Below are positions 1 to 42,863 of a stretch of DNA of 64,000 bases, piece by piece. Below the pieces are notes generated by a model. It had not been told where the DNA came from, did not search any database, and saw only the letters and a program-made list of their open reading frames with translations. This DNA comes from Patescibacteria group bacterium (GTDB lineage: Bacteria; Patescibacteriota; Patescibacteriia; Patescibacteriales; UBA12465): the NCBI GenBank assembly GCA_041661685.1, contig JBAZTY010000001.1, positions 192,691 through 256,690 on the forward strand, in the 5' to 3' direction. Made by a program: the position numbers and the translations under genes. The stretch's first letter is position 1, and the number at the start of each line of letters is the position of its first letter.

Positions 1-720
1 GAACAACAAATTACAACCGCTCAATCACAGGTAGATTCTGCACTAAAATCATATGAGACAGCTAAAGCTCAGTTAGCTCAGGTAAAAGCTCCGGTGCGTG
101 CTTCTGACATAGCGGTTTATCAAGCGCAAATAGCGCAAGCGGAAACTTCGCTACAAAAAATTCAAACCCAGAGGGAGAATTTAGTAATTACTGCGCCATC
201 ATCTGGTGTCGTGGCTGAAGTAAGTGGCGAAGAAGGTGAAACTATTGGCCCCGACCTTATAGTAATTTCTCTTACCTCAGGCGGCGTCTTACAAATTAAA
301 TTAAATGTAGTTGAAGACAAGATCGTAGGAGTTAAAGTTGGACAAACTGTCAAAATAATGATTGATGCAATTAATCAGGAAATATTTACTGGTCGAGTAG
401 TATCAATTAACCCAGCCCAAACTATTATTGGTGGCGCTGTATATTATCAAACTATTATTCTTTTTGATAAAGTAGATGAACGATTAAAGCCTGGCATGAC
501 GGCTAACATCTGGATAAAAACAGCAATTTCAGAAAATGCTCTTTCTGTGCCAGCAAGTGCTGTTAGGAATAGCGATGGCCAGCAAATAGTTCAAGTTTAC
601 TCTAATAAAAAAATAATAAATAAAGATGTATCTACCGGAATTAAAAATGATGCCGGCATGATAGAAATTACGTCTGGATTAATTGAGGGCGATCAAGTGG
701 TCCTTGATAATATAAAATAG
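1..720 (+). CDS. HlyD/MacA-type membrane-fusion adaptor protein, C-terminal part (5' end lies outside the window)
   Basis: Frame 1 is open from nt 1 (EQQITTAQSQVDSALKSYETAKAQLAQVK...). A Q/A-rich coiled-coil stretch is followed by beta-barrel type motifs (LVITAPSSGVV, KPGMTANIWI). An FtsX permease and an ABC ATPase follow immediately. Confidence 0.75.
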   Translation, partial: EQQITTAQSQVDSALKSYETAKAQLAQVKAPVRASDIAVYQAQIAQAETSLQKIQTQRENLVITAPSSGVVAEVSGEEGETIGPDLIVISLTSGGVLQIKLNVVEDKIVGVKVGQTVKIMIDAINQEIFTGRVVSINPAQTIIGGAVYYQTIILFDKVDERLKPGMTANIWIKTAISENALSVPASAVRNSDGQQIVQVYSNKKIINKDVSTGIKNDAGMIEITSGLIEGDQVVLDNIK

Positions 721-722
721 AT

Positions 723-1952
723 ATGACCAGAACTGATTTTAAAACAGCTACTTTTATTGCCTACAAGACTATTACTAATGGTCATAAATCTACCATAGCT
801 TTAATTGTATTTATTCTTTCGCTGTCATTTTTTAACTTGATGTTTGTTTCAGGGTTTTTGAATGGTTTTTCGGATGGAATAATGGAATCTATGATAGATA
901 ACTCGACTGCCCACATTATTATCATGCCACAGGAAAAGCCCACTAAAAAAAACTTTATCCTCGAACAATCGCGGGTTCGTGCCGAAATTCAAACTATTCC
1001 CGGAGTTGTGGCTAGTACGAGACATTATCAAATAGGTGGATCTTTTGCTTATGACGCAGAAAAGAACGGCAAATATAACTATGTATCCGCGCCAATAATT
1101 GGCGTCGATCAAGCTGAGGAAAAAAGGGTTCTTTTTGTACAAAAAAATATGATCTCAGGTGAATTTCCCGATAATCTTCGAGATGATGAGATTGTAATGA
1201 GTGCTAATCTTACTGGTGGGTTCGGTACAAATCAAACAACTGATCTTGGTGGGGCTATTGTTGGTAGTCAAGTGCAGGTAGTTTATTCTAATGGCATAAT
1301 ACGTACATATACGATTAGAGGAATTTTTAAAATTACTATGGGTTCAGTTTCAAATACTGCCTTTATTTCCGCCAGCGAAGCAGAGTCCGTTCTTTCAACA
1401 TATGATAATGCCTCAGAAATACTTGTTAGGGTTGATTTGACGCAGAATACTCTAGATGGCTATGTGAATAGAATAACCAAGATGTTTCCCACCCTGCGTA
1501 TTGAAAAGTATACTGCTCGTCTTTCTACTGTTGGTATATTAGTTGATGCGTTCAATATTATCGCAATTATCGTAAGTGTTATTAGCATTATTGTTGCCGC
1601 CATAACTATATTTGTTATGATTTATGTGAATGCTGTTAGTAAACGTCGACAAATTGGCATATTAAAAGGAATTGGCATTAAAGAAAGCATAATAGAAGTT
1701 TCTTATATTATTCAGTCGATTTTTTATGCCATTTTAGGAATTATTGGTGGCTCTATAATAATATTTTTGATTGTGATACCTTTTTTGGCCGTAAAACAAA
1801 TTCCAATGCCATTTGGAAGCGCTAGATTAGTTTATACTTCGTTCGGTATTTTTATTAATATTATTAGTCTTATCATCGCCGGAATTTTAGCTGGCTTTAT
1901 TCCCGCAAAAATAGTCGCAAATGAAGATATTTTGAAATCCATTTGGGGCTAA
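723..1952 (+). CDS. ABC transporter permease, FtsX/MacB-like
   Basis: 409 aa with an N-terminal TM, a large extracytoplasmic domain and a C-terminal FtsX-type 3-TM bundle (KRRQIGILKGIGIKES). It lies 2 nt after the adaptor gene. Confidence 0.8.
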   Translation: MTRTDFKTATFIAYKTITNGHKSTIALIVFILSLSFFNLMFVSGFLNGFSDGIMESMIDNSTAHIIIMPQEKPTKKNFILEQSRVRAEIQTIPGVVASTRHYQIGGSFAYDAEKNGKYNYVSAPIIGVDQAEEKRVLFVQKNMISGEFPDNLRDDEIVMSANLTGGFGTNQTTDLGGAIVGSQVQVVYSNGIIRTYTIRGIFKITMGSVSNTAFISASEAESVLSTYDNASEILVRVDLTQNTLDGYVNRITKMFPTLRIEKYTARLSTVGILVDAFNIIAIIVSVISIIVAAITIFVMIYVNAVSKRRQIGILKGIGIKESIIEVSYIIQSIFYAILGIIGGSIIIFLIVIPFLAVKQIPMPFGSARLVYTSFGIFINIISLIIAGILAGFIPAKIVANEDILKSIWG

Positions 1953-1961
1953 AAAAATATT

Positions 1962-2621
1962 ATGATTAAAGTAAAGAATCTTATTAAGACATATCCGGGA
2001 CATGTACCGACTTTAGCGCTTAAGGGGGTGACTCTAGAAATTGCTGAGGGTGAATTTGTTGCTCTAATGGGTAGAAGTGGGTCAGGTAAATCAACGCTAT
2101 TACACCAGCTGGGGCTTCTTGATACACCAACATCTGGTAGCATTATTATTAATAAAACAGATGTTTTATCTTTAAGTGAGGCCAAAAGAACAAAATTTAG
2201 ACTGCAAAATCTGGGATATGTTTTTCAAGAATATGCTCTTATTGCTGAATTTACGGCTCTAGAAAATGTTTCTTTTCCGGCAATGGCTTTTGGTGACAGT
2301 AGCTCAAAGGAGCGTGCCAGGCATCTCCTGGATCTAGTTGGTTTATCGGATAGAATAAATCATTATCCAAATGAAATGTCGGGCGGAGAGCAACAACGCG
2401 TAGCTATTGCTAGATCGTTAATAAATAACCCCAAAGTTTTGTTTGCTGATGAACCGACAGCTAATTTAGATACAGTTTCGACAGAGGTAATTTTAAAACT
2501 CTTCCGAAAACTTAATAAGGATCTAAAACAAACAATTTTAGTAGTAACGCATGAGCCTGAGGATAAGAAATATGTTGATAGAGTAATTTGGCTTAAAGAT
2601 GGAATCATAACACATCCTTAG
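1962..2621 (+). CDS. ABC transporter ATP-binding protein (MacB/LolD class)
   Basis: Walker A GRSGSGKST, Q-loop, ABC signature MSGGEQQR, Walker B LFADEPT, H-loop VTHE. Confidence 0.9.
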   Translation: MIKVKNLIKTYPGHVPTLALKGVTLEIAEGEFVALMGRSGSGKSTLLHQLGLLDTPTSGSIIINKTDVLSLSEAKRTKFRLQNLGYVFQEYALIAEFTALENVSFPAMAFGDSSSKERARHLLDLVGLSDRINHYPNEMSGGEQQRVAIARSLINNPKVLFADEPTANLDTVSTEVILKLFRKLNKDLKQTILVVTHEPEDKKYVDRVIWLKDGIITHP

Positions 2622-2691
2622 TAATAACGTGTTGACACTTTGTTGACTCGGTCAATTATTATTTTTTGTTAGATGATATATAAACAAAATT

Positions 2692-2725
2692 AATCAAGTT
2701 AAATATTAAAAACTTGATTTTTTAT
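2692..2725 (+). terminator. Rho-independent terminator after the ABC operon
   Basis: ATCAAGTT / AACTTGAT 8-bp stem followed by a T-run (ttgatttttt). Confidence 0.7.
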
Positions 2726-2889
2726 TTCAGGGAACTTAAATTCTTAGTTACGGTTCTAACCCGGTTATTTTGGTATTAAATTTTTTGATATCATTTTTAA
2801 GAATTGAGTAAATTATGACTAAAGAATACTTATTACCTATATAATTGGGTATTTTTTAGATATTGTCACAATTTATTAAATTTGCTATT

Positions 2890-2937
2890 ATACTATATGT
2901 AGTGTTTTAAATATTATTTATAGACTACATATAGTAA
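2890..2937 (+). promoter_or_regulatory. Tandem NrdR-box-like operators upstream of the nrdJ operon
   Basis: ATACTATATGTAGTGT (2890-2905) matches the NrdR-box consensus acaCwAtATaTwGtgt at 14/16 positions. AGACTACATATAGTAA (2922-2937) matches at 12/16. Start-to-start spacing is 32 bp, and the two boxes are near reverse complements of each other. Confidence 0.6.
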
Positions 2938-2955
2938 TTTATTAATTTTAAAATT

Positions 2956-3516
2956 ATGAATAATCAAGAAAATAAGAATTCTTTTGATATAATTAAAATG
3001 AGTTTAGGTTGGGTTTTAAGTTTTGTTTTACGTTTAATTCCATTTAGACCACCTAATTTGGAACCAATATTGGCCATCCAAATGCCGTTCACTAAAAAAT
3101 TTGGTTTTATGGCCGGATTTTTGTTCGCTTTTTTAAATATTATTTTATTTGACCTAGTGACCGGAAAAGTCGGAATGTGGACTTGGGTGACGGCTGTTGC
3201 TTATGGCTTATTAGCGCTATTTACCCACTGGTATTTTAAAAATAGGAAAAGTACTTCTGTAAACTACGCTGTGCATGCTATTTTTGCCACCTTGATTTAC
3301 GATGCTATAACAGGTTTAACTGTTGGTCCAATATTTTTTGGTCAAAGTTTTATGAGCGCTTTGAGTGGTCAAGCTATTTTTACGGTTTATCATCTAGTAG
3401 GCAATGTTTCACTAGCACTTTTATTTAGTCAAATCATTTATAAATTCTTAGTAACTAATCCTAAACTTAGTATAAGTTATCTTAAGTATAAGTTTGTCCA
3501 GGCTCAAGCCTTATAA
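2956..3516 (+). CDS. Small polytopic membrane protein (ECF S-component-like size and topology); first gene of the nrdJ operon
   Basis: 186 aa with about 5-6 hydrophobic helices. It lies 19 nt downstream of the second NrdR-like box and 23 nt upstream of nrdJ. The function is inferred from context only. Confidence 0.55.
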   Translation: MNNQENKNSFDIIKMSLGWVLSFVLRLIPFRPPNLEPILAIQMPFTKKFGFMAGFLFAFLNIILFDLVTGKVGMWTWVTAVAYGLLALFTHWYFKNRKSTSVNYAVHAIFATLIYDAITGLTVGPIFFGQSFMSALSGQAIFTVYHLVGNVSLALLFSQIIYKFLVTNPKLSISYLKYKFVQAQAL

Positions 3517-3539
3517 TTAATTAATCAAATTTTCACTTT

Positions 3540-5840
3540 ATGTCTAGTATTAATATAGAAATTAGCAGAATACGTAAACGCAGTGGTCAATTAACTAAAT
3601 TTGACCCAATTTTTATTGAAAAGGCCGTTAATAAAGCCTTTAAAGAGGTGGGGGAGGAACCTAACGGTTTTGCTAAAAAAATTAGTAAACAGGTAGAGTC
3701 AGATCTAAAGAAAGTTAAGAAGTTTTCTCCAGACAAAGAATTTATTCCTCACGTAGAAATGATTCAGGATATAGTTGAAGAGGAGTTGATAAAAAATAAT
3801 TTTGCTAAAGTCGCTAAAGCTTATATTTTATATCGTCAGCAGCGAGCTGATTTTAGAAAACAAAAAAAAGACATTCCAGAGCATGTGCAAAAATTAACCG
3901 ATGAAAGTAAAAAATATTTTAATAATCCTTTGTCCGAATTTATTTTTTATCGTAGTTATTCTCGTTGGATTGAAGCTGAACAGAGACGTGAAACCTGGAT
4001 TGAAACGGTAGACAGATACATGACCTATATGAATAAAAATTTAGGCACAGCTTTAACTCCCGTGGAGTATAATGACATGAGAACTGCCATCTTGAAGCAA
4101 GAAATTATGCCCTCTATGCGTTTATTTCAATTTTCTGGTAAAGCCGCTGATAAAACTAACGTCTGTGCTTATAACTGTTCATATATAGCCCCTGAAAGTT
4201 TTCAGGATATGGCTGAAATTATGTATGTTTCGATGTGTGGTACCGGGGTTGGTTGGTCAGTAGAAAGTCAAAATGTTGAGAAATTTCCACAGATAATGCC
4301 ACAAAAAGGTAAAAAACTTGAAACTTATGTAGTTCCAGATGATAAAGAAGGCTGGTCTGATGCTCTTGCCTTGGGGATGAAGATTTGGGCCGATGGTGAT
4401 GATATTAAATTTGATTATTCTTTGCTACGTCCGGCTGGTGCTAGATTACAAACTATGGGTGGTAAAAGTTCTGGCCCAGAACCATTGAGACAGTTGCTTG
4501 ATTTTACTAGAAAAAAAATGTTAAGCAGACAGGGTCGAAGACTAAGAACTATAGATTTACATGATATTATCTGCATGATTGGTTATTGTGTCGTCTCGGG
4601 TGGAGTTCGTAGAAGCGCTATGATTTCTTTGTCGGATTTGGATGATAAAAATATTCGCGATGCTAAACAGGGACAATTTTATATTACCGAGCCACAAAGA
4701 AGTTTGGCTAACAACTCCGCTGTCTATATGCGTAAACCAAGTAATGAAGAATTTTTAGATGAATGGTTGTCTTTAATTAAGTCTGGTTCTGGTGAAAGAG
4801 GTATTTTTAACCGAGGTTCTTTGGCTAAAACAATGCCCCAACGCAGATTAGAGCTCCTAAAACAAAAAAAAGGTTATTTTGATATTACCGGTAAGTTTAT
4901 TCTTGGTCAAATGGGCACCAATCCTTGCGGTGAAATTATCTTACAATCTAAACAATTTTGTAATTTAACCGAAGTGGTTGCTAGACATAATGATACGGAA
5001 GAGTCTTTGCTGAGAAAGGTTAGGCTCGCCTCTATTTTGGGAACTTATCAGTCCACTCTGACTTATTTTCCATATTTATCCAAAGATTGGAAAATAAATT
5101 GTGAAGCAGAAAGATTGTTGGGAGTGTCAGTTACTGGGCAATGGGATTCTAAAGTAAGTCGCGAAGAAGCAGTGCTAAAAAAATTAAAAGATGAAGCAAT
5201 AAGAGTTAATAAAGAGTATGCTAAGAAATTTAATATTGCCCAGTCTAGTTCTGTAACATGTGTTAAACCATCTGGAACAGTTTCTCAATTAGTGGATTGT
5301 GCTTCTGGCATGCATGCTAGGTACGCCCCATATTATATTAGAAGGGTGCGTATTTCCGCTACTGATTCTTTGTTTAAAATGTTAAGAGACCAGGGCGTGC
5401 CCCATAAACTAGAGGTGGGTCAGTCTTATGAGGACGCCACTACTTATGTGTTTGAATTTCCAGTTAAAGCTCCCAAAGGTTCTATTTTTACCAAAGATAT
5501 AAGCGCTTTAGATCAGTTAGAACACTGGAGGAAAGTAAAATTAAATTATACTGAGCATAATCCTTCCGTAACAGTATCTGTGGGTGATGATGAATGGATA
5601 GAAGTGGCCAACTGGATTTATAAAAATTGGGAAATTGTTGGCGGTTTATCTTTTTTACCTCGCAATAACCATGTCTACGAATTAGCCCCCTATGAAGAAA
5701 TAGATAAGATTAAATATGAAGAGTTGTTAGAAAAATTTAGTAACATGGATTTTGCCCAGATTGTAAGTTATGAGAAATATGATGAAACCGAGGCTAAAAA
5801 AGAATTAGCTTGCGCGGGTGGAGCTTGTGAACTTAATTAA
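3540..5840 (+). CDS. nrdJ: Class II adenosylcobalamin-dependent ribonucleoside-triphosphate reductase with N-terminal ATP-cone
   Basis: 766 aa. ATP-cone-like N-terminus (ISRIRKRSGQLTKFDPIFIEKAV), active-site TNPCGEI, C-terminal redox cysteine pair CAGGACE. A B12 adenosyltransferase gene is adjacent. Confidence 0.9.
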   Translation: MSSINIEISRIRKRSGQLTKFDPIFIEKAVNKAFKEVGEEPNGFAKKISKQVESDLKKVKKFSPDKEFIPHVEMIQDIVEEELIKNNFAKVAKAYILYRQQRADFRKQKKDIPEHVQKLTDESKKYFNNPLSEFIFYRSYSRWIEAEQRRETWIETVDRYMTYMNKNLGTALTPVEYNDMRTAILKQEIMPSMRLFQFSGKAADKTNVCAYNCSYIAPESFQDMAEIMYVSMCGTGVGWSVESQNVEKFPQIMPQKGKKLETYVVPDDKEGWSDALALGMKIWADGDDIKFDYSLLRPAGARLQTMGGKSSGPEPLRQLLDFTRKKMLSRQGRRLRTIDLHDIICMIGYCVVSGGVRRSAMISLSDLDDKNIRDAKQGQFYITEPQRSLANNSAVYMRKPSNEEFLDEWLSLIKSGSGERGIFNRGSLAKTMPQRRLELLKQKKGYFDITGKFILGQMGTNPCGEIILQSKQFCNLTEVVARHNDTEESLLRKVRLASILGTYQSTLTYFPYLSKDWKINCEAERLLGVSVTGQWDSKVSREEAVLKKLKDEAIRVNKEYAKKFNIAQSSSVTCVKPSGTVSQLVDCASGMHARYAPYYIRRVRISATDSLFKMLRDQGVPHKLEVGQSYEDATTYVFEFPVKAPKGSIFTKDISALDQLEHWRKVKLNYTEHNPSVTVSVGDDEWIEVANWIYKNWEIVGGLSFLPRNNHVYELAPYEEIDKIKYEELLEKFSNMDFAQIVSYEKYDETEAKKELACAGGACELN

Positions 5841-5848
5841 TAGCTCAT

Positions 5849-6391
5849 ATGTACTTTACAGGTAAAGGAGACAATGGGACATCAACTGTTTTTAATTCCG
5901 AAGAACGTTTGCCTAAGAATGATCCCGTTTTTGAGTTACTAGGAGCCTTAGATGAATTAAATTCTTGGTTAGGCTTTTGTGTTGTAGAAGCTAAAGACCA
6001 AGAAAATATCCAAAAAATTCTAAAAAATATTCAGCATGATTTATTTATTTGCCAAGCTCATTTTGCTCAAGCAGATATTTTGATACCTCAAGATATTCTA
6101 GAAAAAACTGAAAATTGTATTAATAATATTGCTGCTGATATTAAAAAAAGAGAAAGCTTTGTTCTAAGCGGTGGTTCTAAATTAAGCGCTATCTTAGATG
6201 TGGCTAGAACTTTAGTCAGAAGAGTGGAAAGAAGCTCTATCGGAATAGAAGGAGAGCACAAGAAGAAAATAGACCAATTAGTGTTTGCTTATTTAAATCG
6301 TTTGTCCAGTTTATTGTATGTGTTGGCCAGGCAGGCTAATGATTTGTATGGAGTAGAAGAAGAAAATCCAAACTATGATAAATATGAATAA
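5849..6391 (+). CDS. pduO: ATP:cob(I)alamin adenosyltransferase, PduO type
   Basis: N-terminal YFTGKGDNGTS motif (canonical T(R/K)xGDxGxT), followed by LLGALDELNSWLG. The 180 aa length is typical. Confidence 0.85.
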   Translation: MYFTGKGDNGTSTVFNSEERLPKNDPVFELLGALDELNSWLGFCVVEAKDQENIQKILKNIQHDLFICQAHFAQADILIPQDILEKTENCINNIAADIKKRESFVLSGGSKLSAILDVARTLVRRVERSSIGIEGEHKKKIDQLVFAYLNRLSSLLYVLARQANDLYGVEEENPNYDKYE

Positions 6392-6514
6392 AAGTTTTTT
6401 AAAATTATTAACTATTGTTGATAAATTAGGTAAGAAATATAAGATAATGTTTTGATAGACATATTTGGCAGTTTAAATTAAAAATTAGGAACTAAGTTAC
6501 ATAAATATTAAAAT

Positions 6515-6754
6515 ATGAAAGATAAAATTAAACATAAAGTATTTACAGCAGAAACGCTTAGCCTTTATAACGGCCAAAACGGTCAGCCCGCCTACGTCGC
6601 TATTGACGGTCTTGTTTATGATGTTTCAACTGCCTTTATCGAAGGTGCGCATATTAATCATCAAGCTGGCATGGATTTATCTGAAGATTTTCATAGTATA
6701 CATGCAATTGAGATAATCAAAAAATACCCGATAATGGGAATATACAAGTCATAA
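6515..6754 (+). CDS. Cytochrome b5-like heme/steroid-binding domain protein
   Basis: 79 aa. FTAETLSLYNGQNGQPAYVAIDGLVYDVS resembles the b5-like/PGRMC fold signature. Confidence 0.6.
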   Translation: MKDKIKHKVFTAETLSLYNGQNGQPAYVAIDGLVYDVSTAFIEGAHINHQAGMDLSEDFHSIHAIEIIKKYPIMGIYKS

Positions 6755-6769
6755 TAAATTTATTTTTAT

Positions 6770-7300
6770 ATGAAAAAACCAATTATTTTTTCTATTGGTC
6801 ACTCGTCACGTACAATTATAGATTTTCTGTCCTTATTAAGTAAAAATGGCATAAAAGAAATAATTGATATTCGTTCGTTACCTGGCTCACGTTATGCGCC
6901 TCAATTTAATCAAGAAACTCTTGTTGAGTCCTTAAAAGAAGTTAGTATACGATATAAATATATAGAAAAGTTGGGGGGACGTCGTAGAAGCAGTGAGGAT
7001 TCAATTAACTTAGGTTGGCACAATGTTTCATTTCGCGGTTATGCCGATTACATGTCTACGTCTGAATTCTCAGCCGGATTAGCCGAGCTTATTAAAATAG
7101 CTAGTTTTAAAACAACCGCTATTATGTGCGCGGAGGCTGTGCCCTGGCGTTGTCATCGTTCTCTAATTTCCGATGCATTAAGTAAAAAGGGTTGGGAAGT
7201 GCGTAATATTATTGGATCTGAATCAACCGTTAGGCATCGACTAACGCCATTTCTTAAAATGAAAAAGGGCCAAATTGTTTATCCTGAAATAAAAAATTAA
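6770..7300 (+). CDS. DUF488 family protein
   Basis: FSIGHSSRT...IDIRSLPGSRYAPQFN...CAEAVPWRCHRSLISD is the characteristic DUF488 pattern. Confidence 0.75.
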   Translation: MKKPIIFSIGHSSRTIIDFLSLLSKNGIKEIIDIRSLPGSRYAPQFNQETLVESLKEVSIRYKYIEKLGGRRRSSEDSINLGWHNVSFRGYADYMSTSEFSAGLAELIKIASFKTTAIMCAEAVPWRCHRSLISDALSKKGWEVRNIIGSESTVRHRLTPFLKMKKGQIVYPEIKN

Positions 7301-7323
7301 TTAAATATTTAAATTTTAATCAT

Positions 7324-7635
7324 ATGCAAGAAAATATTATAAACCCCGAAGAAGATATTAAATATCAGACTGGCTCAGTAGTCAGTAAAGAAATTCTCAA
7401 GAAAGATTCTGGAACGATTACCTTGTTTGCTTTTGATACCGGGCAAGGGCTCAGTGAACACACTGCACCCTTTGCGGCCTTAGTTAGTATATTAGACGGA
7501 GAAGCTATAATCACAATCGCTGGCACCCCACATGTAGTTGTTAAAGGACAACTCATTATTCTTCCTGCTAATAAACCGCACTCACTAAAAGCAGATAATA
7601 AATTTAAAATGATGTTGGTTATGATTAGGAGCTAA
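7324..7635 (+). CDS. Cupin-domain protein
   Basis: 103 aa with the two-motif cupin layout (GLSEHTAPFAALVSILDGEA ... PANKPHSL). Confidence 0.65.
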   Translation: MQENIINPEEDIKYQTGSVVSKEILKKDSGTITLFAFDTGQGLSEHTAPFAALVSILDGEAIITIAGTPHVVVKGQLIILPANKPHSLKADNKFKMMLVMIRS

Positions 7636-7837
7636 TATGAGTGTGATGAAACTTATGCAGAATTAGGTCTGCTGCTCCAAGCAAGTATAGGGGAAACAAG
7701 TGGACAGAAATACTGTATAGGCGCTTCTAACGAAGGGGTGACTGGATCGGTTAGGCGGATGAAGAATTAATAGTTAAAAAATTATTTATTATTAGCCATC
7801 CAAGTTCGGAAGCCGTCCCTCCAAGCGAGCTAATAAA

Positions 7838-7868
7838 ATAAAACACCCACTTGGGTGTTTTATTTTAG
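7838..7868. terminator. Bidirectional hairpin terminator
   Basis: aaaACACCCActTGGGTGTtttatttt, with an A-run before and a T-run after the stem. Confidence 0.6.
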
Positions 7869-7878
7869 CATTCTAGGA

Positions 7879-8045
7879 GTTGGGGATTCGAACAGGCCAG
7901 AAGCGAAACAAGTTTGAGCCGCTATTCTGAGCGGCGAGAACGCAGGAGAGCGTCGCTAAGCATCTAGGGGATGCTTAGCGCTGGCCCAGGACAAGTGAGC
8001 GACGCGGAAGCGGAGCGAGCGCGAGAAATCCCTATCCCCGAGCAA
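7879..8045 (+). other. GC-rich structured element of unknown class (candidate ncRNA or RNA-gene relic)
   Basis: A sharp GC-rich island inside AT-rich intergenic DNA. Nested perfect hairpins GCCGCT..AGCGGC and CGCTAAGCATC-taggg-GATGCTTAGCG, a CGC-GGAA-GCG tetraloop hairpin, and terminal GGGGAT/ATCCCC complementarity. The 5' segment GGAUUCGAACAGG..GCGAAAC resembles the 5' end of tmRNA. I found no tag ORF, T-arm or CCA end. Confidence 0.3.
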
Positions 8046-8085: not shown

Positions 8086-8997
8086 ATGAACGAAGTAGAC
8101 GATTTAGTGATAATATGTTATAATTTAAACATGATAAACATGTTTAAAAGAATGACAGAAGAGGAGGCAGCTAAATTCCGAAGAGCGGGATCAAAGTTTA
8201 TGATAATACCATTCGCGATTATTATTATTATCGGGATAGCGGCTGTTATTTTCCCGGAAGTTCGGAATTTTTTGGGTTTTGATATTATTCTAAAACCAGC
8301 AACTATAGGCGTTCCTTACGAATATGATTTTTCTTGGATGAAATCGCCAGAATGTTTTGAGCCGTGTCATTTTGAAACAACTGCGATGGAGGGATTTGTT
8401 CCTTTAGGTCTTCAACTTTGGCCTGATGGCATGTTAAAAGGTACGCCAACAGGAAAAAGCAGTCGTTTTGAGATTTGTGTAATAGACGCGGCGGGCAAGA
8501 GATCGGCTTGCAGAAAGTTTAATCAAGAAGTAATGGATCCTAAAAATGATACAAAAACCTTAACCACCGAGAATCCCACGAACGGCAGCGCCCCAGTTTC
8601 TACAAAAGGTTTAACTGATGTTTGGTCCGGCACTTATTCGTATGCTCTAAATTTTGACAATCAAGGTCCGGTTTTTTACAATACTGATAAGTTTATCTTA
8701 AAATTTTTTCGGAACGGGAATAATATTAAAGGTTCCTATACTCAATATTCTGGAGAGAAAAGTACGACAGAAAATATCATCGGAACAATTGTTGGGACGC
8801 AAATAAAGTTTAATGACGATTGGTGTCCCGCAACTAACGTACAATCATCAATTTGCTTTAGATTCGCGGGCACTGTTTCTGGTAATTCAATAAATTTGAA
8901 TGCCGAACGCTGCTCCTTTAATACGTTTTGCCCTTCTCGTTATTCAGCGAGTTCTCAGGGTCCTGCGATCAAGGGTACTGTTACTTTAACTAGATAG
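8086..8997 (+). CDS. Membrane-anchored or secreted protein with a putative Ig-like domain (probable true start ATG 8131)
   Basis: N-terminal TM (FMIIPFAIIIIIGIAAVIF) and an LPxGLxxxxxGxxxGTPT-type Ig-like motif (PLGLQLWPDGMLKGTPTGKSSRFEICVIDAAG). TGTTATAAT at 8116-8124 lies 6 nt before ATG 8131. Confidence 0.55.
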   Translation: MNEVDDLVIICYNLNMINMFKRMTEEEAAKFRRAGSKFMIIPFAIIIIIGIAAVIFPEVRNFLGFDIILKPATIGVPYEYDFSWMKSPECFEPCHFETTAMEGFVPLGLQLWPDGMLKGTPTGKSSRFEICVIDAAGKRSACRKFNQEVMDPKNDTKTLTTENPTNGSAPVSTKGLTDVWSGTYSYALNFDNQGPVFYNTDKFILKFFRNGNNIKGSYTQYSGEKSTTENIIGTIVGTQIKFNDDWCPATNVQSSICFRFAGTVSGNSINLNAERCSFNTFCPSRYSASSQGPAIKGTVTLTR

Positions 8998-9114
8998 CAC
9001 TACCAATTCTACAGCCGTAAAGGCCGAGACTTAGTGAACACCGGGCAAATAGCTTGACATAAGGGTTATCTTTTGTTAAACTATAGTTAACTTTATTTAT
9101 TAAATAAAAAATAT

Positions 9115-9330
9115 ATGGAAAGTCTGATTGCTTTAAAAGATTTACGACTTAATATGGATAAATATGCCACCGAAGTAAAGGCTGGCAAATCTTTTATTGT
9201 TTTAAAACAAAGCAAGCCTATCTTTAAATTAAGCCCTATTGATGAAGATAATAGCTGGGAAGAGGTTATTAACTTCGCTAAAATTAAAAAGGGTGGCGTT
9301 AATATTGATGAACTTTTAGCTGTTTTATAA
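9115..9330 (+). CDS. Type II antitoxin, Phd/YefM-like
   Basis: 71 aa. The N-terminus (LIALKDLRLNMDKYATEVKAGKSFIVLKQSKPIFKLSP) fits the Phd/YefM pattern. A toxin-like ORF follows 4 nt downstream. Confidence 0.6.
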   Translation: MESLIALKDLRLNMDKYATEVKAGKSFIVLKQSKPIFKLSPIDEDNSWEEVINFAKIKKGGVNIDELLAVL

Positions 9331-9334
9331 TATT

Positions 9335-9580
9335 ATGGATAAAATTGCTAAAGCGTTAAAAAATTTATCATCTAAAGAAAGAGAAATAATAAAGGCCATT
9401 CTTTTAAAAATAAAAAAAGGTTCTTTGTCTGGGTTTGATTTAAAAAAACTAAAAAATTGCGATGATATTTTTCGTATTAGAAGGGGAAAATTAAGAATTA
9501 TTTTTAAAAAGCTAGAAGATGGTCAATATTTCATTTTGACTATTGAGAGAAGATCGGACAAGACCTATAATAATTATTAA
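9335..9580 (+). CDS. Type II toxin, RelE/ParE family
   Basis: 81 aa. The C-terminal FRIRRGKLRIIFKKLEDGQYFILTIERRSDKTY is a typical RelE/ParE core. Confidence 0.65.
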   Translation: MDKIAKALKNLSSKEREIIKAILLKIKKGSLSGFDLKKLKNCDDIFRIRRGKLRIIFKKLEDGQYFILTIERRSDKTYNNY

Positions 9581-9649
9581 ATAACCGTTTCAACTATCCC
9601 AACCTCGGCGTCAGCATTAAAAACAGGTTCATTACGGCCTGTTTTTGTT

Positions 9650-10186
9650 TTGTTATTATGGTATAATAAAAACATGAAATTAATAAAAATTATACAATTT
9701 AAAGATTTAAAGCCGGAAGATATTGAAAAATTTGAAGTTCGCAGAGCGGCTAGAGCCGTGGTTTTTGATAATGATAAAAATATAGGAATTTTATATGTTG
9801 GTAAATATAATTATCATAAGCTGCCAGGCGGTGGTCTTGAGGGCGACGAAAGCATTGAAGAAGCTCTAAAAAGAGAATGTTTAGAAGAAATTGGTTGTAA
9901 TATAGAAATATTCGAGGAGCTTGGAGAAATCATTGAATATAGGGATGAATGGTTACTGAAGCAGCATTCCTATTGTTATTTAGCTAATATGGTCGGAGAT
10001 AAGGGTAGGCCAGACTTTACTCAGAAAGAAATAGAAACTGGGTTTGAAATAAAATGGGTATCGCTAGAGGAGGCTATTAAATTATTAGAAAATGATAAGC
10101 CCGAAGATTATGAGGGCGGATTTATACAAATAAGAGATGGCCGCTTTTTAAAAGAAGCGGAGAAGTTTTTAAATAAAATATTATGA
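9650..10186 (+). CDS. NUDIX hydrolase (probable true start ATG 9674)
   Basis: Nudix box GGGLEGDESIEEALKRECLEEIGC. TGGTATAAT at 9659-9667 lies 6 nt before ATG 9674, so the track start at 9650 is probably spurious. Confidence 0.8.
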   Translation: MLLWYNKNMKLIKIIQFKDLKPEDIEKFEVRRAARAVVFDNDKNIGILYVGKYNYHKLPGGGLEGDESIEEALKRECLEEIGCNIEIFEELGEIIEYRDEWLLKQHSYCYLANMVGDKGRPDFTQKEIETGFEIKWVSLEEAIKLLENDKPEDYEGGFIQIRDGRFLKEAEKFLNKIL

Positions 10187-10458
10187 AAAAAGAACAAATA
10201 ATAAAAAATAATAGTATTGCGGTTTACCAAGCAAAAAATGGGGCTATTGAGTTAAGAGCTGACTCTAAAACGGAGACAGTTTGGGCTACTCAGGATAAAG
10301 GCTCAGCCGCCAAAGCTTTAGCTAAAGTTGGGGCGACTTCTTATTTCGGCGTCTTAACTCGTACCGCTTTAGCTGAGTTTCAAGCCCAGGCAGGCATTAG
10401 CCCGGCCTCGGGAAATTTTGGACCAATAACTCGGGCTTATTTAAGTAAACATTATTAA
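10183..10458 (+). pseudogene. Chimeric ORF: RhuM-like N-terminal fragment fused to the C-terminal part of a peptidoglycan-binding (PG_binding_1-like) domain
   Basis: Residues 1-37 (IAVYQAKNGAIELRADSKTETVWATQ) look like the start of RhuM-family proteins. The rest (FGVLTRTALAEFQAQAGISPASGNFGPITRAYL) looks like the end of a PG-binding domain. The junction near nt 10294 coincides with the composition shift. Confidence 0.5.
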
Positions 10459-10480
10459 TAATCGCTTTCATTAATGAGAG

Positions 10481-10924
10481 GTGTTTTTTTATTTTATGGA
10501 CAAAATAGCACTTTTTGTGCTATTTTTATTATATAAAATTAATTGTAAAATTATGAAAGAAAATAATAATAAGTTCATCTATTGGGCGCCGCGGATCTTA
10601 TCGATTATCTTTATATTGTTTTTGGCTATGTTCTCCCTAGATGTCTTCGGTACAGGGCTAGGTTTTTGGGCAACGGCGGAAGCGCTATTTATGCATAATC
10701 TTCCGGCGCTTATCTTGCTAGTTGTTCTCTTGATTTCTTGGAAGTACGAGATAGTCGGAGGGATCGCCTTTATTTTAGCCGGAGTAGCATATATTTCAAT
10801 GCTGCTGCTAAACGTCGGCCGATTCGAATGGTATGCGTTGTCTTATTCTCTAATTATCGCCGGCCCCGCGTTTTTTATTGGGATTCTGTTTCTTATCGAT
10901 TGGCGCCGGAAAAAGATTAATTAA
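10481..10924 (+). CDS. Integral membrane protein, unknown function (possible start ATG 10553)
   Basis: Four hydrophobic helices. No recognisable motif. Confidence 0.5.
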   Translation: MFFYFMDKIALFVLFLLYKINCKIMKENNNKFIYWAPRILSIIFILFLAMFSLDVFGTGLGFWATAEALFMHNLPALILLVVLLISWKYEIVGGIAFILAGVAYISMLLLNVGRFEWYALSYSLIIAGPAFFIGILFLIDWRRKKIN

Positions 10925-10941
10925 TAAATTTTATAAAATGC

Positions 10942-11505
10942 ATGTCTCTTAAAACCGTTAAGCAAATAAAAGAAAAGATAAAAAATGAATGTTATGATTC
11001 CGGACATATTAATTCTTGGTTTTACAATAATCATTTATTGGCCGTAGAAAAATATGCGAATTTTTTACTAAAAAAATTACCAAAAGCTAATTCAGAAATA
11101 GTTTTATTGGGCGTCTGGCTGCACGACGCCCAAAAAGTTCGGGGGACAAAAGGCGATCATCAAAAAGCCGGAGCGATTGAAGCTAGAAAAATAATGTTGG
11201 AATACGATTATTCTCCCGATATGATAAAAAAAGTTCAAAACATCATTCTCACCCATAGTTGCGGCAGCTCCAGGCCAGACACGTTAGAGGGAAAAATTTT
11301 AGCGACGGCGGATGCTATGTCGCACTATGTAAATGATTTTTATTTACAGATAGCGATAAGAGAGCGAAGAAGTCTCGCCGATTTCAAATTATGGGCACTA
11401 GAAAAATTAAATCGGGATTTTAATAAAAAGATGTTTTTTCCATTCGCTAAAAAGGAGATAAAGGAAAGGCATGCGATCTTAATGAAGTTATTTACGATGA
11501 AATAG
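10942..11505 (+). CDS. HD-domain phosphohydrolase
   Basis: H...HD pattern (GVWLHDAQK), with downstream LTHS and ATADAMSH. Confidence 0.7.
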   Translation: MSLKTVKQIKEKIKNECYDSGHINSWFYNNHLLAVEKYANFLLKKLPKANSEIVLLGVWLHDAQKVRGTKGDHQKAGAIEARKIMLEYDYSPDMIKKVQNIILTHSCGSSRPDTLEGKILATADAMSHYVNDFYLQIAIRERRSLADFKLWALEKLNRDFNKKMFFPFAKKEIKERHAILMKLFTMK

Positions 11506-11575
11506 AACTATAAAGTATCGATTATATTCCGTATTTCTAAGAAAATAAATAAAAGCATTAAATAATATTAAATTT

Positions 11576-12472
11576 ATGTATCAAAAAAATGAAGGAATGC
11601 TCGATCGATTGATTCGAGCAATATTAGCAGAAGCATTTTTTCTCTTAGCTTGGTTCTGGCTAGGCGGCGCGGTGCAGATAATTTCATATGTCTTGAGTTT
11701 TTTGATGGCCTTGACGGCGACCATGGGATTCTGTGGTTTATACAAAGTATTAAGTTTCAAGACTAACAAGAAAAGCCTTAAATCCCCAAAAATAATATTC
11801 AGCGTTTTTGTTGTTGTATTTTTAGCTATCGCGATTGCCGGCAGCTATTATAGCAGTTTCTTCACAAGAAAAATATTTCTTGAGGATTATAATTTGATGA
11901 ATAATTATTATAAGCAAGCACTATTTAATACCGGACAAGAAAAAAGATTGGAATCAATCGCGAATTATGACGCGTTAGCTGTCGAATATGCTAGTTTTTC
12001 TAGAAAATACACTAGCTATCATCCGCAAGTAATTTCCAGGGATAAGAATTTTAACTCAGACTTGATGAAAGTTTCTTTGTTGATTACCGGTCTCAGGGAT
12101 AAGGTCTACATGGGGGATTTGAAAGAGGCTCATGCTAATTTTGAAGAAGTCCGCCCGATATTCCAAGATATTTTGAAACGTAATGGTTTTTCTATGCTTG
12201 CCGTCTATTTAGTGGATTTTCACGATTCCATGGAGAAGGTGATTGCCGAGGCTGATAATAAAAATCCGGGCGGGGTTATAGAAACTTACGCCGAGGCTAA
12301 CGGAAAGCTTATGTTGGTTGAAGAGGCGGCGAACGACGATGAAATTAAAACTATCCGGAATAATCTGGAGGCATTACTAGGCTTAGCACAAGCGGGCAAT
12401 AAAGAAGACTTGTCGGCTAGGGCGGCTGAATTAAAAAGCAGCTTCGTGAAAGTCTATTTGAAAAGAGGGTAA
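11576..12472 (+). CDS. Membrane protein with N-terminal DUF2892 (YgaP-like) segment and a helical C-terminal domain
   Basis: MLDRLIRAILAEAFFLLAW...GFCGLYKVL resembles DUF2892. A third TM and a soluble helical region follow. Confidence 0.5.
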   Translation: MYQKNEGMLDRLIRAILAEAFFLLAWFWLGGAVQIISYVLSFLMALTATMGFCGLYKVLSFKTNKKSLKSPKIIFSVFVVVFLAIAIAGSYYSSFFTRKIFLEDYNLMNNYYKQALFNTGQEKRLESIANYDALAVEYASFSRKYTSYHPQVISRDKNFNSDLMKVSLLITGLRDKVYMGDLKEAHANFEEVRPIFQDILKRNGFSMLAVYLVDFHDSMEKVIAEADNKNPGGVIETYAEANGKLMLVEEAANDDEIKTIRNNLEALLGLAQAGNKEDLSARAAELKSSFVKVYLKRG

Positions 12473-12501
12473 TTATCCATGATTTAAAGTTTAAGTAATC
12501 T

Positions 12502-12855
12502 ATGTCTATACTCTTGAAGAATCTTTTTAAATTTTTCAGCTCGATCCTGCGGGGCATGAAAGATGCTAAGTTCCGCAGCCTCTTGTTTTTCGTGCTAGTC
12601 ATTCTTTTTATCGGCACCTTCTTCTATCATAAGGTAGAAGGCTGGCGCTGGCTGGATTCTTTTTATTTCAGTTCCATATCTTTAACTACCGTCGGTTATG
12701 GCGATATAACCCCCAAGACGGATATCGGAAAAATATTTACAGTTTTCTATATATTCTCAGGCGTCGGAGTGATTCTCGGCTTCATAACTTCGGTAGCCAA
12801 CAAGGCTCATGAAAAGAACATAACTGAAGATTTGATTGATAAAAGACGCGGTTAG
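12502..12855 (+). CDS. Two-TM potassium channel (KcsA-like pore only)
   Basis: Selectivity filter TTVGYGD flanked by two TM helices. 117 aa. Confidence 0.85.
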   Translation: MSILLKNLFKFFSSILRGMKDAKFRSLLFFVLVILFIGTFFYHKVEGWRWLDSFYFSSISLTTVGYGDITPKTDIGKIFTVFYIFSGVGVILGFITSVANKAHEKNITEDLIDKRRG

Positions 12856-13056
12856 TTTGTCAATAAAGTGTTACAGCATTGCCGGCCTGTCTATCGGAGT
12901 TTTCCGGGGTGGCAAAAGGATCTTAGCGGCTGTGCTGATTGTGAAAGCCTGCCGCTTGAACTCAAGAAAATCCTTGAATTTGTAATGAGCCGCACCGGAA
13001 TAAAACTAAGAATGATCTCGATCTGACCGGATCGCGAGGAAACCATCTTTCTTTAA
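12856..13056 (+). pseudogene. purA: Relic of the C-terminus of adenylosuccinate synthetase
   Basis: The frame open from 12856 reads ..CRPVYRSFPGWQKDLSGCADCESLPLELKKILEFVMSRTGIKLRMISI*PDREETIFL*. This matches the conserved PurA C-terminus (PVYExxPGW...LPxxAxxYxxxIEExxGxPIxxISxGPDRxxTI), with TGA in place of the conserved Gly codon. The preceding ~370 codons are absent. Confidence 0.65.
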
Positions 13057-13065
13057 ATAATCTAT

Positions 13066-13096
13066 AAAAGAGCGACCTAAAATCGCTCTTTTTTAT
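13066..13096 (+). terminator. Rho-independent terminator retained after the purA relic
   Basis: AAAGAGCGA-cctaaaa-TCGCTCTTT followed by a T-run. Confidence 0.7.
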
Positions 13097-13186
13097 TTGT
13101 CTGAGACCGCCTTGAGCGTTTTCAATTATAGCTGATATAGGATATAATAGGAATAAATTATAAGATAAGCTCTAACGCTTGAAATT

Positions 13187-13702
13187 ATGAAATTAATAAT
13201 CTTTAACGGCAGTTCTTGTTCCGGAAAAAGCACCATTATCAAGAATATCATGAAGCAGAAGGATCATTTCTACCATCTGTCATACGACCTATTGCGCTGG
13301 TCTTTTTCTAATTATCGCTCAGAAACTCATTATGAAGACGTCCGCAAAGTAGTTCTCGCTGTCGCGGAGGCTGTCTTTAAGATGAAGTATGACGTCGTCT
13401 CTGAGATATTATATGCAGAACAGCGCCAGAAGCTGATCGATCTCGCCGTTAAGCATAGTTATGAAATATTAGAAATAAATCTGGAGGCAGATTTCGAGGT
13501 GCTAGCGGAAAGATTTGACGAAAGAGTAGCAAAAGCTTTGGCGACGCCAGTGGCGGAAAGGCGGATATCTAACCTATCAAAAGAGAGGTTCAAGGAGTTA
13601 TTCGATATATTCCATCGAGAGAAGAATTCTTCGGCTGTCACTTTCAGAACAGACAGGCAGAGTATAGAAGAGATCTCCGAGAATATAATGAAGCTTTTAT
13701 AA
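13187..13702 (+). CDS. P-loop kinase (AAA_33 / chloramphenicol-phosphotransferase-like fold)
   Basis: The N-terminal Walker A sits right at the start (IIFNGSSCSGKST). 171 aa. Confidence 0.55.
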   Translation: MKLIIFNGSSCSGKSTIIKNIMKQKDHFYHLSYDLLRWSFSNYRSETHYEDVRKVVLAVAEAVFKMKYDVVSEILYAEQRQKLIDLAVKHSYEILEINLEADFEVLAERFDERVAKALATPVAERRISNLSKERFKELFDIFHREKNSSAVTFRTDRQSIEEISENIMKLL

Positions 13703-13713
13703 TATTTTTAAAT

Positions 13714-19410: not shown

Positions 19411-19425
19411 TGGTATAATAAACAC

Positions 19426-19686
19426 ATGAGTAAATATTTTCTTTATACCCTCAGATGTGCCGACAAGACGCTTTATACCGGGATTACTACGGATCTTAAT
19501 CGCCGGGTAAGCGAGCATAATTCGACTAGCCGAGGGGCGAAATATACTTGCGGCCGCAGGCCGGTTAGGCTAGTATATTCTAAAGAGTTTTCGAATCGTT
19601 CTACGGCCTCTAAAGAAGAAGCGCGGTTCAAGAAATTACCGCGTCCCGAGAAATTGGAAATTATAAAATCAGCCAAAAAGATATGA
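19426..19686 (+). CDS. GIY-YIG nuclease family protein (UPF0213-like)
   Basis: YFLYTLRCADKTLYTGITTDLNRRVSEHN. TGGTATAAT lies 6 nt upstream of the ATG. Confidence 0.8.
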   Translation: MSKYFLYTLRCADKTLYTGITTDLNRRVSEHNSTSRGAKYTCGRRPVRLVYSKEFSNRSTASKEEARFKKLPRPEKLEIIKSAKKI

Positions 19687-42862: not shown

Positions 42863-42863
42863 T

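Follow-up and report, generated by a model that had tools for sequence, protein, structure and literature searches.

A RhuM-family gene start fused in frame to a PG_binding_1 gene end, at the edge of a low-GC3 stretch in a Patescibacteria genome

The DNA analysed here, called the window, is a stretch of 64,000 nucleotides from contig JBAZTY010000001.1 of a Patescibacteria group bacterium. A sequence-only reading had singled out one short ORF in it as chimeric and as lying at an abrupt break in base composition. The ORF and its surroundings are listed in Table 1. In NCBI it is annotated as a "peptidoglycan-binding domain-containing protein". Its start overlaps the stop of a NUDIX gene (ATGA), and it is followed by two terminator-like hairpins and by genes for a DUF7670 membrane protein and an HD protein. 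On the far left lies block A, which carries genes for a MacB-type ABC transporter, a class II RNR, a Cob adenosyltransferase, a cytochrome b5, a DUF488 protein and a cupin. Next come a terminator hairpin and a GC-rich structured element, which sits between T-arm-like sequence and an exact copy of a tRNA-Gln 3' end, and then a toxin-antitoxin (TA) pair and the NUDIX gene.

Table 1. Features around the chimeric ORF (positions in the window)
Feature	Position	Strand	Remarks
Block A	1..7838	+	runs ~1.85 kb left of the window; GC3 0.23-0.32
Block A, conserved right end	7795-7830 (of 7795..7867)	+	homology with all sister strains ends at 7830-7842
Perfect 16-bp bidirectional terminator hairpin	7834-7867	+	follows the conserved right end of block A
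GC-rich structured element, ~160 nt	7868..8027	undefined	conserved in L008 with hairpins kept and sequence different
tRNA-Gln(CTG) 3' 16 nt, exact copy (ATCCCTATCCCCGAGC)	8028..8043	+	att-type remnant; matches the tRNA of relatives
Phd/YefM-like + ParE-like pair	9115..9580	+	weak Pfam matches; 82.5% nt identity to L008
NUDIX gene	9674..10186	+	170 aa; relatives have 169 aa and lose homology at 10177-10181
RhuM-family 5' fragment	10173..10294	+	10 nt leader plus codons 1-37
Chimeric ORF	10183-10458	+	ATG to TAA, 91 codons, 91 aa; NCBI MFA6194327.1
Fusion junction J2, CTCAGG	10289..10294	+	RhuM identity to 10294, PG identity from 10289
PG_binding_1 gene 3' fragment	10289..10461	+	natural stop codon kept
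Two terminator-like hairpins after the ORF	10465..10526	+	10465-10480 with T-run; 10502-10526
DUF7670 membrane protein gene	10553..10924	+	first higher-GC3 gene (0.49); L004 homology from 10485

The two parts of the ORF were compared separately and each matched its own family, at the DNA as well as the protein level, which bears out the chimera. The RhuM fragment has 95% nucleotide identity to L003, a metagenome locus that goes on as RhuM. Residues 1-37 are 97% identical to the proteins P0011 and P0012, both of which then continue "...WATQAQIAEIF..." as RhuM, and 65-78% identical to P0014, P0021 and P0032, all with PF13310. Pfam and NCBIfam scans gave no PF13310 match in the ORF or in residues 1-37; in the relatives of this half the PF13310 model begins at residue 66-74. 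The ORF is a remnant of Virulence_RhuM, not a member of the family. RhuM decay is recurrent, to judge from truncated RhuM starts of 51-94 aa within long contigs (P0012, 74 kb; P0018, 28 kb; P0020, 79 kb).

In the second half, residues 50-85 match positions 21-55 of the 57 in Pfam PG_binding_1 (PF01471; E 1.1e-5, 25.9 bits against a gathering cut-off of 23 bits). This is the C-terminal two thirds of the domain, as had been read from the letters. The complete three-helix domain (positions 1-57) is not present; the relatives P0002, P0005 and P0007 cover positions 1-55. Relatives with the full domain (P0002-P0010) align to the C-terminal 56-71% of the query at 62-79% identity, and the DNA is 76% identical to L010. 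All conserved PG_binding positions are kept, with no decay. A PHROGs scan of the ORF returned only a weak endolysin match, due to the PG domain. Two of the PG relatives, P0002 and P0005, lie on contigs of 1-1.6 kb with unrelated neighbours.

The two homologies meet at J2, where CTCA is common to both parents and the microhomology amounts to 4-6 nt, CTCA(GG). The join is in frame, and the peptide across it reads ...ETVWATQDKGSAAK... The ORF is thus a genuine in-frame fusion of RhuM-family codons 1-37 with the last 54 codons and stop of a PG_binding_1 gene. No second RhuM or PG_binding copy is present in the 64-kb window. No homolog with the same 91-aa architecture was found among 5.8 billion proteins. 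Searches around the ORF for tRNAs, Rfam families and flanking direct or inverted repeats found none.

The composition break was measured by GC3 and four-fold sites instead of bulk GC. Bulk GC, k-mer change-points and local left/right contrasts were dropped as measures, since none of them picked out 10.3 kb. There is no abrupt step in bulk GC at that point: its best single change-point falls at 18.8-20.9 kb, and by local contrast 10.3 kb takes only a moderate rank, between 67th of 621 and 349th of 601, depending on window size. GC3 does step here. All 13 genes to the left of the break have a GC3 of 0.20-0.33, and right-hand genes have 0.31-0.60. By codons, GC3 in the whole window has its change-point at 10573 (lnLR 273). 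Within 0-16 kb the maximum lnLR is 68, with a 2-lnL interval of 10543-10588, and the fusion junction scores 4.7 lnL lower. Four-fold-site GC by gene is best split between 10458 and the next gene (equalled in 0 of 5000 gene-order permutations; Mann-Whitney 4e-7). The best change-point, 10.46-10.59 kb, thus coincides with the 3' end of the ORF, about 170-260 nt from the junction.

The composition break is real, but only at synonymous sites and within one gene of the junction, and the ORF is the last low-GC3 element before higher GC3 returns. The PG half itself, with a GC3 of 0.33 over 55 codons, fits neither side of the break specifically. Two hand counts of G+C made from the letters, 11 for the line at 9661 and 40 for the line at 21421, were correct on recount. 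The description of the upstream part as CpG-poor did not hold: CpG observed/expected is 0.99 on the left and 1.29-1.35 on the right, so the left is not CpG-depleted and the right is CpG-enriched. The locus serves as a worked example of a boundary that is hidden in bulk GC and turns clear at synonymous sites.

Two truncated genes joined near a composition break could also come from assembly: a join at about 10.3 kb, between contigs of two organisms or simply of two contigs end to end, would produce both the fused ORF and the composition step. The strong left/right contrast in GC3 and CpG fits this, and on the 202-kb ENA contig the low-GC3 part occupies 14.5 kb at one end. In addition, block A is 95% identical to the sister strain L047. 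There, GreA and MarR lie next to block A; they are the sole non-island genes observed beyond it, and their GC3 is low too. Two Logan contigs also end and start within the Phd gene (9213 and 9252). Against it, the identical junction recurs in at least three assemblies. The ORF and its flanks are the same in the ENA MEGAHIT contig (ERZ27249449, k141) and in a Logan SRR6484324 contig (k31) spanning 9252-14007, and the junction is found in the NCBI/JGI records and in the window itself. The window is a separate consensus, since one SNP, at nt 1669 inside the FtsX gene, sets it apart from the two versions compared there, ENA and Logan SRR18595301.

Moreover, a de Bruijn mis-join requires a repeat shared by both sides, and at this joint, which is a clean in-frame microhomology, there is none. 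A repeat-mediated mis-join would in any case leave the RhuM/PG junction real in one genome. GC skew and gene orientation run unbroken across the site, and in L008, an independent GTDB genome, the GC-rich element, Phd/ParE pair and HD gene around it stand in the same order and orientation. A mis-join inside the TA module, at the Logan contig ends, was also considered and rejected: no long stretch is shared there, and the L008 synteny speaks against it. An assembly artefact is extremely unlikely, and the contig concatenation offered by the sequence-only reading was set aside. A mis-assembly can be told from a real chimeric ORF at such a boundary by asking whether the junction recurs in other assemblies and whether synteny holds in an independent genome.

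The neighbourhood is a patchwork in which the nearest relative of almost every gene lies in another genome and another context, with borders in the spacers. In the left part, the patches match L013 up to 7838, L008 at 9053-9590, L040/L042 at 9642-10181 and L003 across the RhuM fragment. In the right part they match L010 across the PG fragment and L004 at 10485-10926, followed by the HD gene at 10932-11507; the gap in homology between the PG and DUF7670 patches is 10462-10484. J2 is the only patch border that cuts coding sequence on both sides. The left junction, at the NUDIX stop and RhuM start, may be a second illegitimate join or a templated insertion, or equally well an ordinary cassette border with a zero-length spacer.

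This patchwork bears on a one-step acquisition, in which a single foreign segment of at least 12 kb, from block A through RhuM, integrated illegitimately with its right end in a resident PG-binding gene. Such an event would account for the uniformly low GC3 from MarR/MFP (about -1.8 kb) to the ORF, for the cutting of both genes at the junction and for the match of the RhuM piece to a low-GC3 genome (L003 has a GC3 of 0.19-0.35 throughout). However, the sister strains share the stretch only up to 7838. Block A occurs in other strains at 90-98% identity with different flanks; L047/L013, L048 and L049 share it at 95-98% and diverge at 7830-7842, and L047, L048 and L049 have other content to the right. 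The supposed segment contains both the tRNA-Gln 3' remnant and the GC-rich element of L008 type. The TA pair is syntenic with L008, where it likewise stands between the GC-rich element and the HD gene, and the NUDIX gene is an array member in L040. The NUDIX, TA, DUF7670 and HD genes each have a different context in each relative, and patch identities spread from 76% to 99.6%. One-step acquisition is thus unlikely; the low-GC3 stretch is a mosaic whose several pieces were inherited separately, and it did not come in as a single segment.

In relatives, tRNA-Gln(CTG) is followed by a variable accessory array, and the ORF lies within this array. L004, L008 and L040 have an intact tRNA-Gln followed by low-GC3 accessory genes, and in L004 and L008 the tRNA-Gln is accompanied by a repeat of its 3' end. 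The window holds no intact tRNA and no further copy of the tRNA-Gln 3' end, including at 10.3-10.6 kb, where no att-type repeat or integrase was seen either. Between a point about 4.1 kb before the window and 20.5 kb, the gene tables list no integrase. The earlier statement that no integrase or repeats lie nearby was right for the junction in the window, but it overlooked the tRNA-Gln 3' copy, and L047 carries an element with a tyrosine integrase, Rep and a serine recombinase that starts at the equivalent of 7838.

In a genome with an identity of only about 70-76%, the GC-rich element keeps its structure, with compensatory changes. Scans of viral contigs with the end of this element and with RhuM gave nothing useful. 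It is conceivable, though very unlikely, that the fusion ORF is a by-product of an unrecognised Patescibacteria exchange system. In that case the GC-rich element would act as a miniature integrative element or as a recombination-site module of RNA or DNA, and would drive the exchange of cassettes, one gene at a time, downstream of tRNA-Gln. Such a system would be integron-like but would work without attC sites or an intI gene.

Taken together, the ORF is a real scar, in which the beginning of a RhuM-family gene was attached to the tail of a PG-binding gene when imprecise recombination took place at the border of an AT-rich region prone to exchange. The explanation as a whole, with the origin and fate set out below, has a probability of roughly 0.7. 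The part of the earlier interpretation that named a recombination scar or the edge of exchanged DNA agrees with the in-frame microhomology, the synonymous-site break, the L003 match and the variable array after tRNA-Gln. A mobile piece of DNA carrying RhuM probably arrived recently, since the RhuM part has the closest outside relative of all patches (95% nt and 97% aa identity, versus 85-88% for NUDIX and 76-79% for the PG part) and that relative is a low-GC genome. Most likely, an illegitimate, microhomology-mediated deletion then removed the rest of RhuM, the intervening DNA and the 5' part of a resident PG-binding gene. Another possible explanation is that the junction is the illegitimate end of an integration event, which would give the same outcome. 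The in-frame result would be a 1-in-3 accident.

The relatives searched provide no locus in the ancestral state, in which NUDIX would be followed by an intact RhuM or DUF7670 preceded by an intact PG-binding gene, so the deletion is inferred rather than seen and is indistinguishable from illegitimate integration. A GTDB scan with the HD protein found six relatives, none with a PG-binding gene before DUF7670, and a search with the DUF7670 protein gave L004 as the closest (83%). No RhuM was found downstream of NUDIX in a NUDIX protein search or in the contexts of P0037 and P0043.

The RhuM fragment lacks a TATAAT promoter of its own, and the remnant is probably transcribed with the NUDIX gene and translationally coupled to it through the ATGA overlap. 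The product is most likely an inert, young pseudogene-like scar, given that the RhuM HTH and PF13310 core, helix 1 of the PG bundle and an export signal are all absent. No hydrophobic N-terminus was found by a heuristic measure (the maximal 15-residue Kyte-Doolittle mean, 1.07, lies elsewhere in the ORF). The ORF could instead be a new, selected gene for a small cytoplasmic protein, coexpressed with NUDIX and made of a RhuM N-terminal hairpin and a two-helix PG_binding remnant. The reading frame is indeed intact with its natural stop and coupled to NUDIX, and the PG_binding part keeps its conserved residues and exceeds the Pfam cut-off. This is nevertheless quite unlikely. The architecture occurs in one strain alone in the protein search, the domain is without helix 1 and export signal, and the AlphaFold model, itself only weak evidence, has low confidence (mean pLDDT 54, pTM 0.24). 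In addition, the RhuM part is so close to L003 that there has been too little time for selection to show. The finding is useful mainly for curation: MFA6194327.1, being a remnant of two parents, is best left out of counts of PG-binding and RhuM genes.

Horizontal gene transfer and genomic islands are reported to be common in Patescibacteria (PMC12455944). The ORF marks a recent illegitimate recombination in a tRNA-Gln-linked hot spot of a streamlined, uncultured Patescibacteria genome and adds one concrete case to the high island turnover reported for this group.

Compared with its parent families, the ORF shares with Virulence_RhuM the conserved N-terminal extension (..YQAKNGAIELR....ETVWATQ), which is only the part upstream of the Pfam domain; it lacks the HTH and the PF13310 core. 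PG_binding_1 is a domain that ends secreted proteins of Patescibacteria. The ORF has its natural C-terminus and stop, but not the first 20 profile positions (helix 1), the upstream protein or the export signal. At the level of the locus, islands and variable regions with truncated border genes are found at tRNA genes; one example is SPI-3 of Salmonella, at selC, the source of the name rhuM. The present locus differs from tRNA-linked islands in that an intact tRNA, an integrase and a second direct repeat are all absent from the window. It is also a mosaic instead of one bounded island, and its distal border is an illegitimate join rather than an att site. It shares with them a deviating composition at synonymous sites, content that varies by strain, an integrase element at the adjacent breakpoint in a sister strain, TA and RhuM cargo, and a gene-fragment scar at the distal edge; the copy of the tRNA 3' end at 8028-8043 may be a further common feature. 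The fusion itself is biologically ordinary. Fusion pseudogenes that arise by microhomology-mediated (illegitimate) deletion occur in bacterial genomes, and like them the ORF has neither flanking repeats nor a recombinase site and consists of two co-oriented truncated genes joined at 4-6 common bases.

The 91-codon open reading frame (the ORF) is a chimera of two gene fragments, a RhuM start (RhuM') and a PG_binding_1 end ('PG). The sequence-only reading had claimed as much, and Pfam, protein and DNA homology, and alignment bear it out. Residues 50-85 match positions 21-55 of the 57 in the Pfam PG_binding_1 profile (E 1.1e-5, 25.9 bits; cut-off 23 bits). The homologous proteins P0002-P0010 are 62-79% identical across the C-terminal 56-71% of the query and carry a complete domain with the helix-1 motif '..V..LQ.FLISQNKG', which the ORF lacks. 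P0011 and P0012, both of which continue '...WATQAQIAEIFDIERSVITKHINN...', share 97% identity with residues 1-37; proteins bearing PF13310 (Virulence_RhuM), in which the PF13310 match starts at residue 66-74, share 65-78%. Because this defining domain is absent, the ORF is not a RhuM family member, and its PG_binding_1 domain is only partial.

At the DNA level, RhuM homology reaches 10294 and PG homology begins at 10289 (70% to the relative locus L011; nearest relatives are in the table). In a four-way alignment, the window matches the RhuM parent up to and including GCTACTCAGG and, from CTCA on, the PG parents, which places the join within a 4-6 nt microhomology at 10289-10294, in frame. No second RhuM or PG_binding copy was found within the window. 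Public collections hold the identical protein as MFA6194327.1, 'MAG: peptidoglycan-binding domain-containing protein [Patescibacteria group bacterium]'. Full-length homologs with the 91-aa architecture in other genomes had been named as part of the counter-evidence to the chimera; except for the identical sequence, none was found among 5.8 billion proteins.

Contig concatenation or chimeric assembly had been offered as one source of the fusion, and we consider such an artefact very improbable. The ORF also appears, between identical flanks, in ENA ERZ27249449 (a MEGAHIT contig of 202 kb) and in run SRR6484324, where a Logan contig spans 9252-14007; six contig blocks carry it in all. A further Logan contig, from SRR18595301, extends over the left side as far as 9213; it and the ENA contig both differ from the window by the same single SNP, at nt 1669, and the window is therefore a separate consensus. 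No repeat able to mislead a de Bruijn graph was found at the junction, and even a repeat-mediated mis-join would leave one genome with a genuine RhuM|PG joint. Neither GC skew (0.09-0.25) nor gene orientation breaks at the site. The most telling evidence against an assembly join is synteny with L008, an independent GTDB genome (isolate SO_2017_LW4_128), which matches the window in order and orientation across the site: a GC-rich element, a Phd/ParE toxin-antitoxin (TA) pair and an HD gene. In favor of an artefact, the Logan contigs of the two runs break nearby, one ending at 9213 and the other starting at 9252, both inside the Phd antitoxin gene. No long stretch identical to L008 was found at 9213-9252, and these ends may reflect a variant in the population, or else a short shared sequence within the toxin-antitoxin cassette.

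The composition break is real, the sharpest in the window, and lies at most one gene from the chimera. As first described, it was abrupt; this holds at third codon positions (GC3) and four-fold sites but not for bulk GC, which rises gradually over the window. Composition profiling, the proposed check, put the best single change-point of 1- to 4-mers at 18.8-20.9 kb, and the local left/right contrast of bulk composition at 10.3 kb is unremarkable. The hand counts of 11 and 40 G+C were correct, though both lines are extremes. GC3 is 0.20-0.33 in each of the 13 genes that end no later than 10186 and 0.31-0.60 in genes after 10458. The codon-level change-point of the whole window is at 10573 (lnLR 273). 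When 0-16 kb was analyzed, the maximum lnLR was 68, with a 2-lnL interval of 10543-10588, and the fusion junction lies 4.7 lnL below the maximum. By four-fold-site GC, the best gene-level split falls between the ORF stop and the DUF7670 gene (matched by 0 of 5000 gene-order permutations) and the second best at the NUDIX/ORF border; left and right differ with Mann-Whitney values of 4e-7, or 2e-5 against the next 10 kb only. CpG o/e rises from 0.99 on the left to 1.29-1.35 on the right. The PG half (GC3 0.33 over 55 codons) is not assignable to either side.

Two other features of the window were observed. GC skew is strongly positive (0.03-0.25 per kb) to ~23-24 kb and then near zero while genes remain on the + strand, a second composition boundary (1-24000 vs 24000-64000) unrelated to the GC3 step. 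At 32842-36417, where the window is richest in GC, a 1599-aa ORF with DUF7483 repeats contains 1788 nt (596 codons) duplicated in tandem, in frame and almost perfectly; either a recent duplication or an assembly collapse/expansion may account for it.

For each gene around the ORF, the nearest fetched relative is a different genome, with other neighbors in every relative. The borders lie in spacers, and the RhuM|PG junction is the only one that cuts coding sequence on both sides.

Features around the chimeric ORF, with the nearest fetched relative of each
Feature	Position	Strand	Nearest relative	Nucleotide identity	Remark
Block A (gene block)	up to 7838		L013/L047	95% overall (99.6% over 7000-7838)	
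GC-rich element	7858-8044				L008-syntenic part, order kept
TA pair (Phd/ParE)	9053-9590		L008	82.5%	L008-syntenic, order kept
NUDIX	9642-10181		L040, L042	83-85%	
Chimeric ORF	10183-10458	+			ATG to TAA, 91 aa
RhuM'	10173-10294		L003	95%	
'PG	10289-10461		L010	76%	
DUF7670	10485-10926		L004	80%	
HD	10932-11507		L004-L009	70-79%	L008-syntenic part 10935-11504, order kept
K channel	12496-12844		L004	88%	

NUDIX relatives have 169 aa and end ...AAT AAA ATA TAG; the window NUDIX has 170 aa and ends ...ATA TTA TGA, overlapping the RhuM ATG. The TATAAT box upstream of RhuM in L003 is absent from the window. The RhuM' remnant would therefore have no promoter of its own and be coupled to NUDIX. Past the ORF lie two terminator-like hairpins. 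Separately, a 31-nt motif is common to three genes (8104-8134, 9647-9677 and 19399-19429, at a 288-aa membrane protein, NUDIX and GIY-YIG), with TGnTATAAT 6 nt before the ATG, which points to a common promoter module and leaderless transcripts.

Block A begins about 1.85 kb beyond the left end of the window and ends at 7838; among its genes are MarR, a MacB-type transporter, class II RNR and a cupin. It is 95-98% identical to the sister strains L047/L013, L048 and L049, whose homologies all stop at 7830-7842, immediately past a conserved 36-nt end, with a terminator hairpin following. Its first part (1-2729) is ~90% identical to L012, where homology ends at ~2729. Beyond the equivalent of 7838, L047 (10515-20312) carries a tyrosine integrase, Rep, HEPN, DpnI, an AAA_15 ATPase and a serine recombinase. 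By these comparisons, 7830-7842 is an integration hot spot.

Some side observations concern block A. The hairpin after the 36-nt sequence differs between strains (7795-7867). Upstream of the block (L044 1-2763; 0-4.1 kb left of the window) are MarR (-), a 97-aa ORF that matches ArdC-N below threshold and may be another remnant, and a 357-aa unknown gene (-), beyond which the ENA contig ends; GC3 there is 0.30-0.44, and L047 has GreA and tRNA-Asn instead. A second MacB-type transporter lies at 40955-43577 in the higher-GC3 part of the window, its MFP-like and ABC ATPase paralogs being 34-46% identical to the block A copies.

In L004, L008 and L040, the order is LysS, (Pyr_excise), tRNA-Gln(CTG) and then low-GC3 accessory genes, which lead to HD (L004, L008) or NUDIX (L040). 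L004 and L008 have a direct repeat of the tRNA-Gln 3' 16 nt downstream. No tRNA gene was found within the window, and the exact 16-mer occurs there once, at 8028-8043. It is preceded by the GC-rich structured element (7868-8027), which in L008 lies between tRNA-Gln and the repeat. The 16-mer, the block A breakpoint and the L047 integrase element thus place the ORF ~2.2 kb inside a variable, integration-prone region, at its distal, composition-defined edge. The low-GC3 stretch is a composite, not a single acquired block.

The GC-rich element (window 7868-8045, L008 3201-3377) is ~160-180 nt long within an AT-rich spacer. Its hairpins are kept through different sequences in the two genomes (fold z-scores -2.7 and -3.0), and no Rfam match was found for it. 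On the left it ends in a sequence resembling the T-arm of tRNA-Gln (5' half), and on the right in the exact tRNA-Gln 3' 16 nt. An att remnant, a miniature integrated element and an unknown ncRNA are all candidates for what it is, and it may be the sole nearby item deserving its own look.

The RhuM piece is far closer to an outside relative than the others are (97% aa, 95% nt; 111 nt contain 3 synonymous differences and 1 non-synonymous); the best amino acid identity is 88% for NUDIX and 79% for the PG part. The relative of the RhuM piece lies in a uniformly low-GC3 genome beside a ParB-methylase, an OLD-type ATPase and an HTH_17 gene. Truncated RhuM starts (51-94 aa) are frequent inside long Patescibacteria contigs (P0011, P0012, P0018, P0020), and RhuM genes seem to arrive and decay repeatedly; in L003 (10001-10790), a RhuM remnant is followed by a different NUDIX gene. 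From this we infer that a RhuM-bearing mobile segment entered the array recently. A microhomology-mediated deletion would then have fused RhuM, at its codon 37, with a resident PG-binding gene reduced to its last 54 codons; alternatively, an illegitimate end of the integration itself could have made the joint. No locus with the pre-event arrangement was found in GTDB and metagenome scans, further protein searches and context look-ups. A recombination scar at the edge of exchanged DNA, the other origin first proposed, is the best supported reading (probability about 0.7), given the microhomology join, the GC3 step at most one gene away and the variable tRNA-linked region.

The ORF product lacks the RhuM HTH and core and PG_binding_1 helix 1, no hydrophobic N-terminus was found in it, and its AlphaFold model has a mean pLDDT of 54 and a pTM of 0.24. 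It is probably inert, but with an intact ORF and no change at the conserved PG residues it may still be functional. The ORF is of use mainly for annotation hygiene and also as a sign that illegitimate recombination occurred recently. Earlier work already documents genomic islands in Patescibacteria and frequent exchange among them (PMC12455944). The ORF fits the familiar picture in which a gene-fragment scar stands where a tRNA-linked variable region ends.
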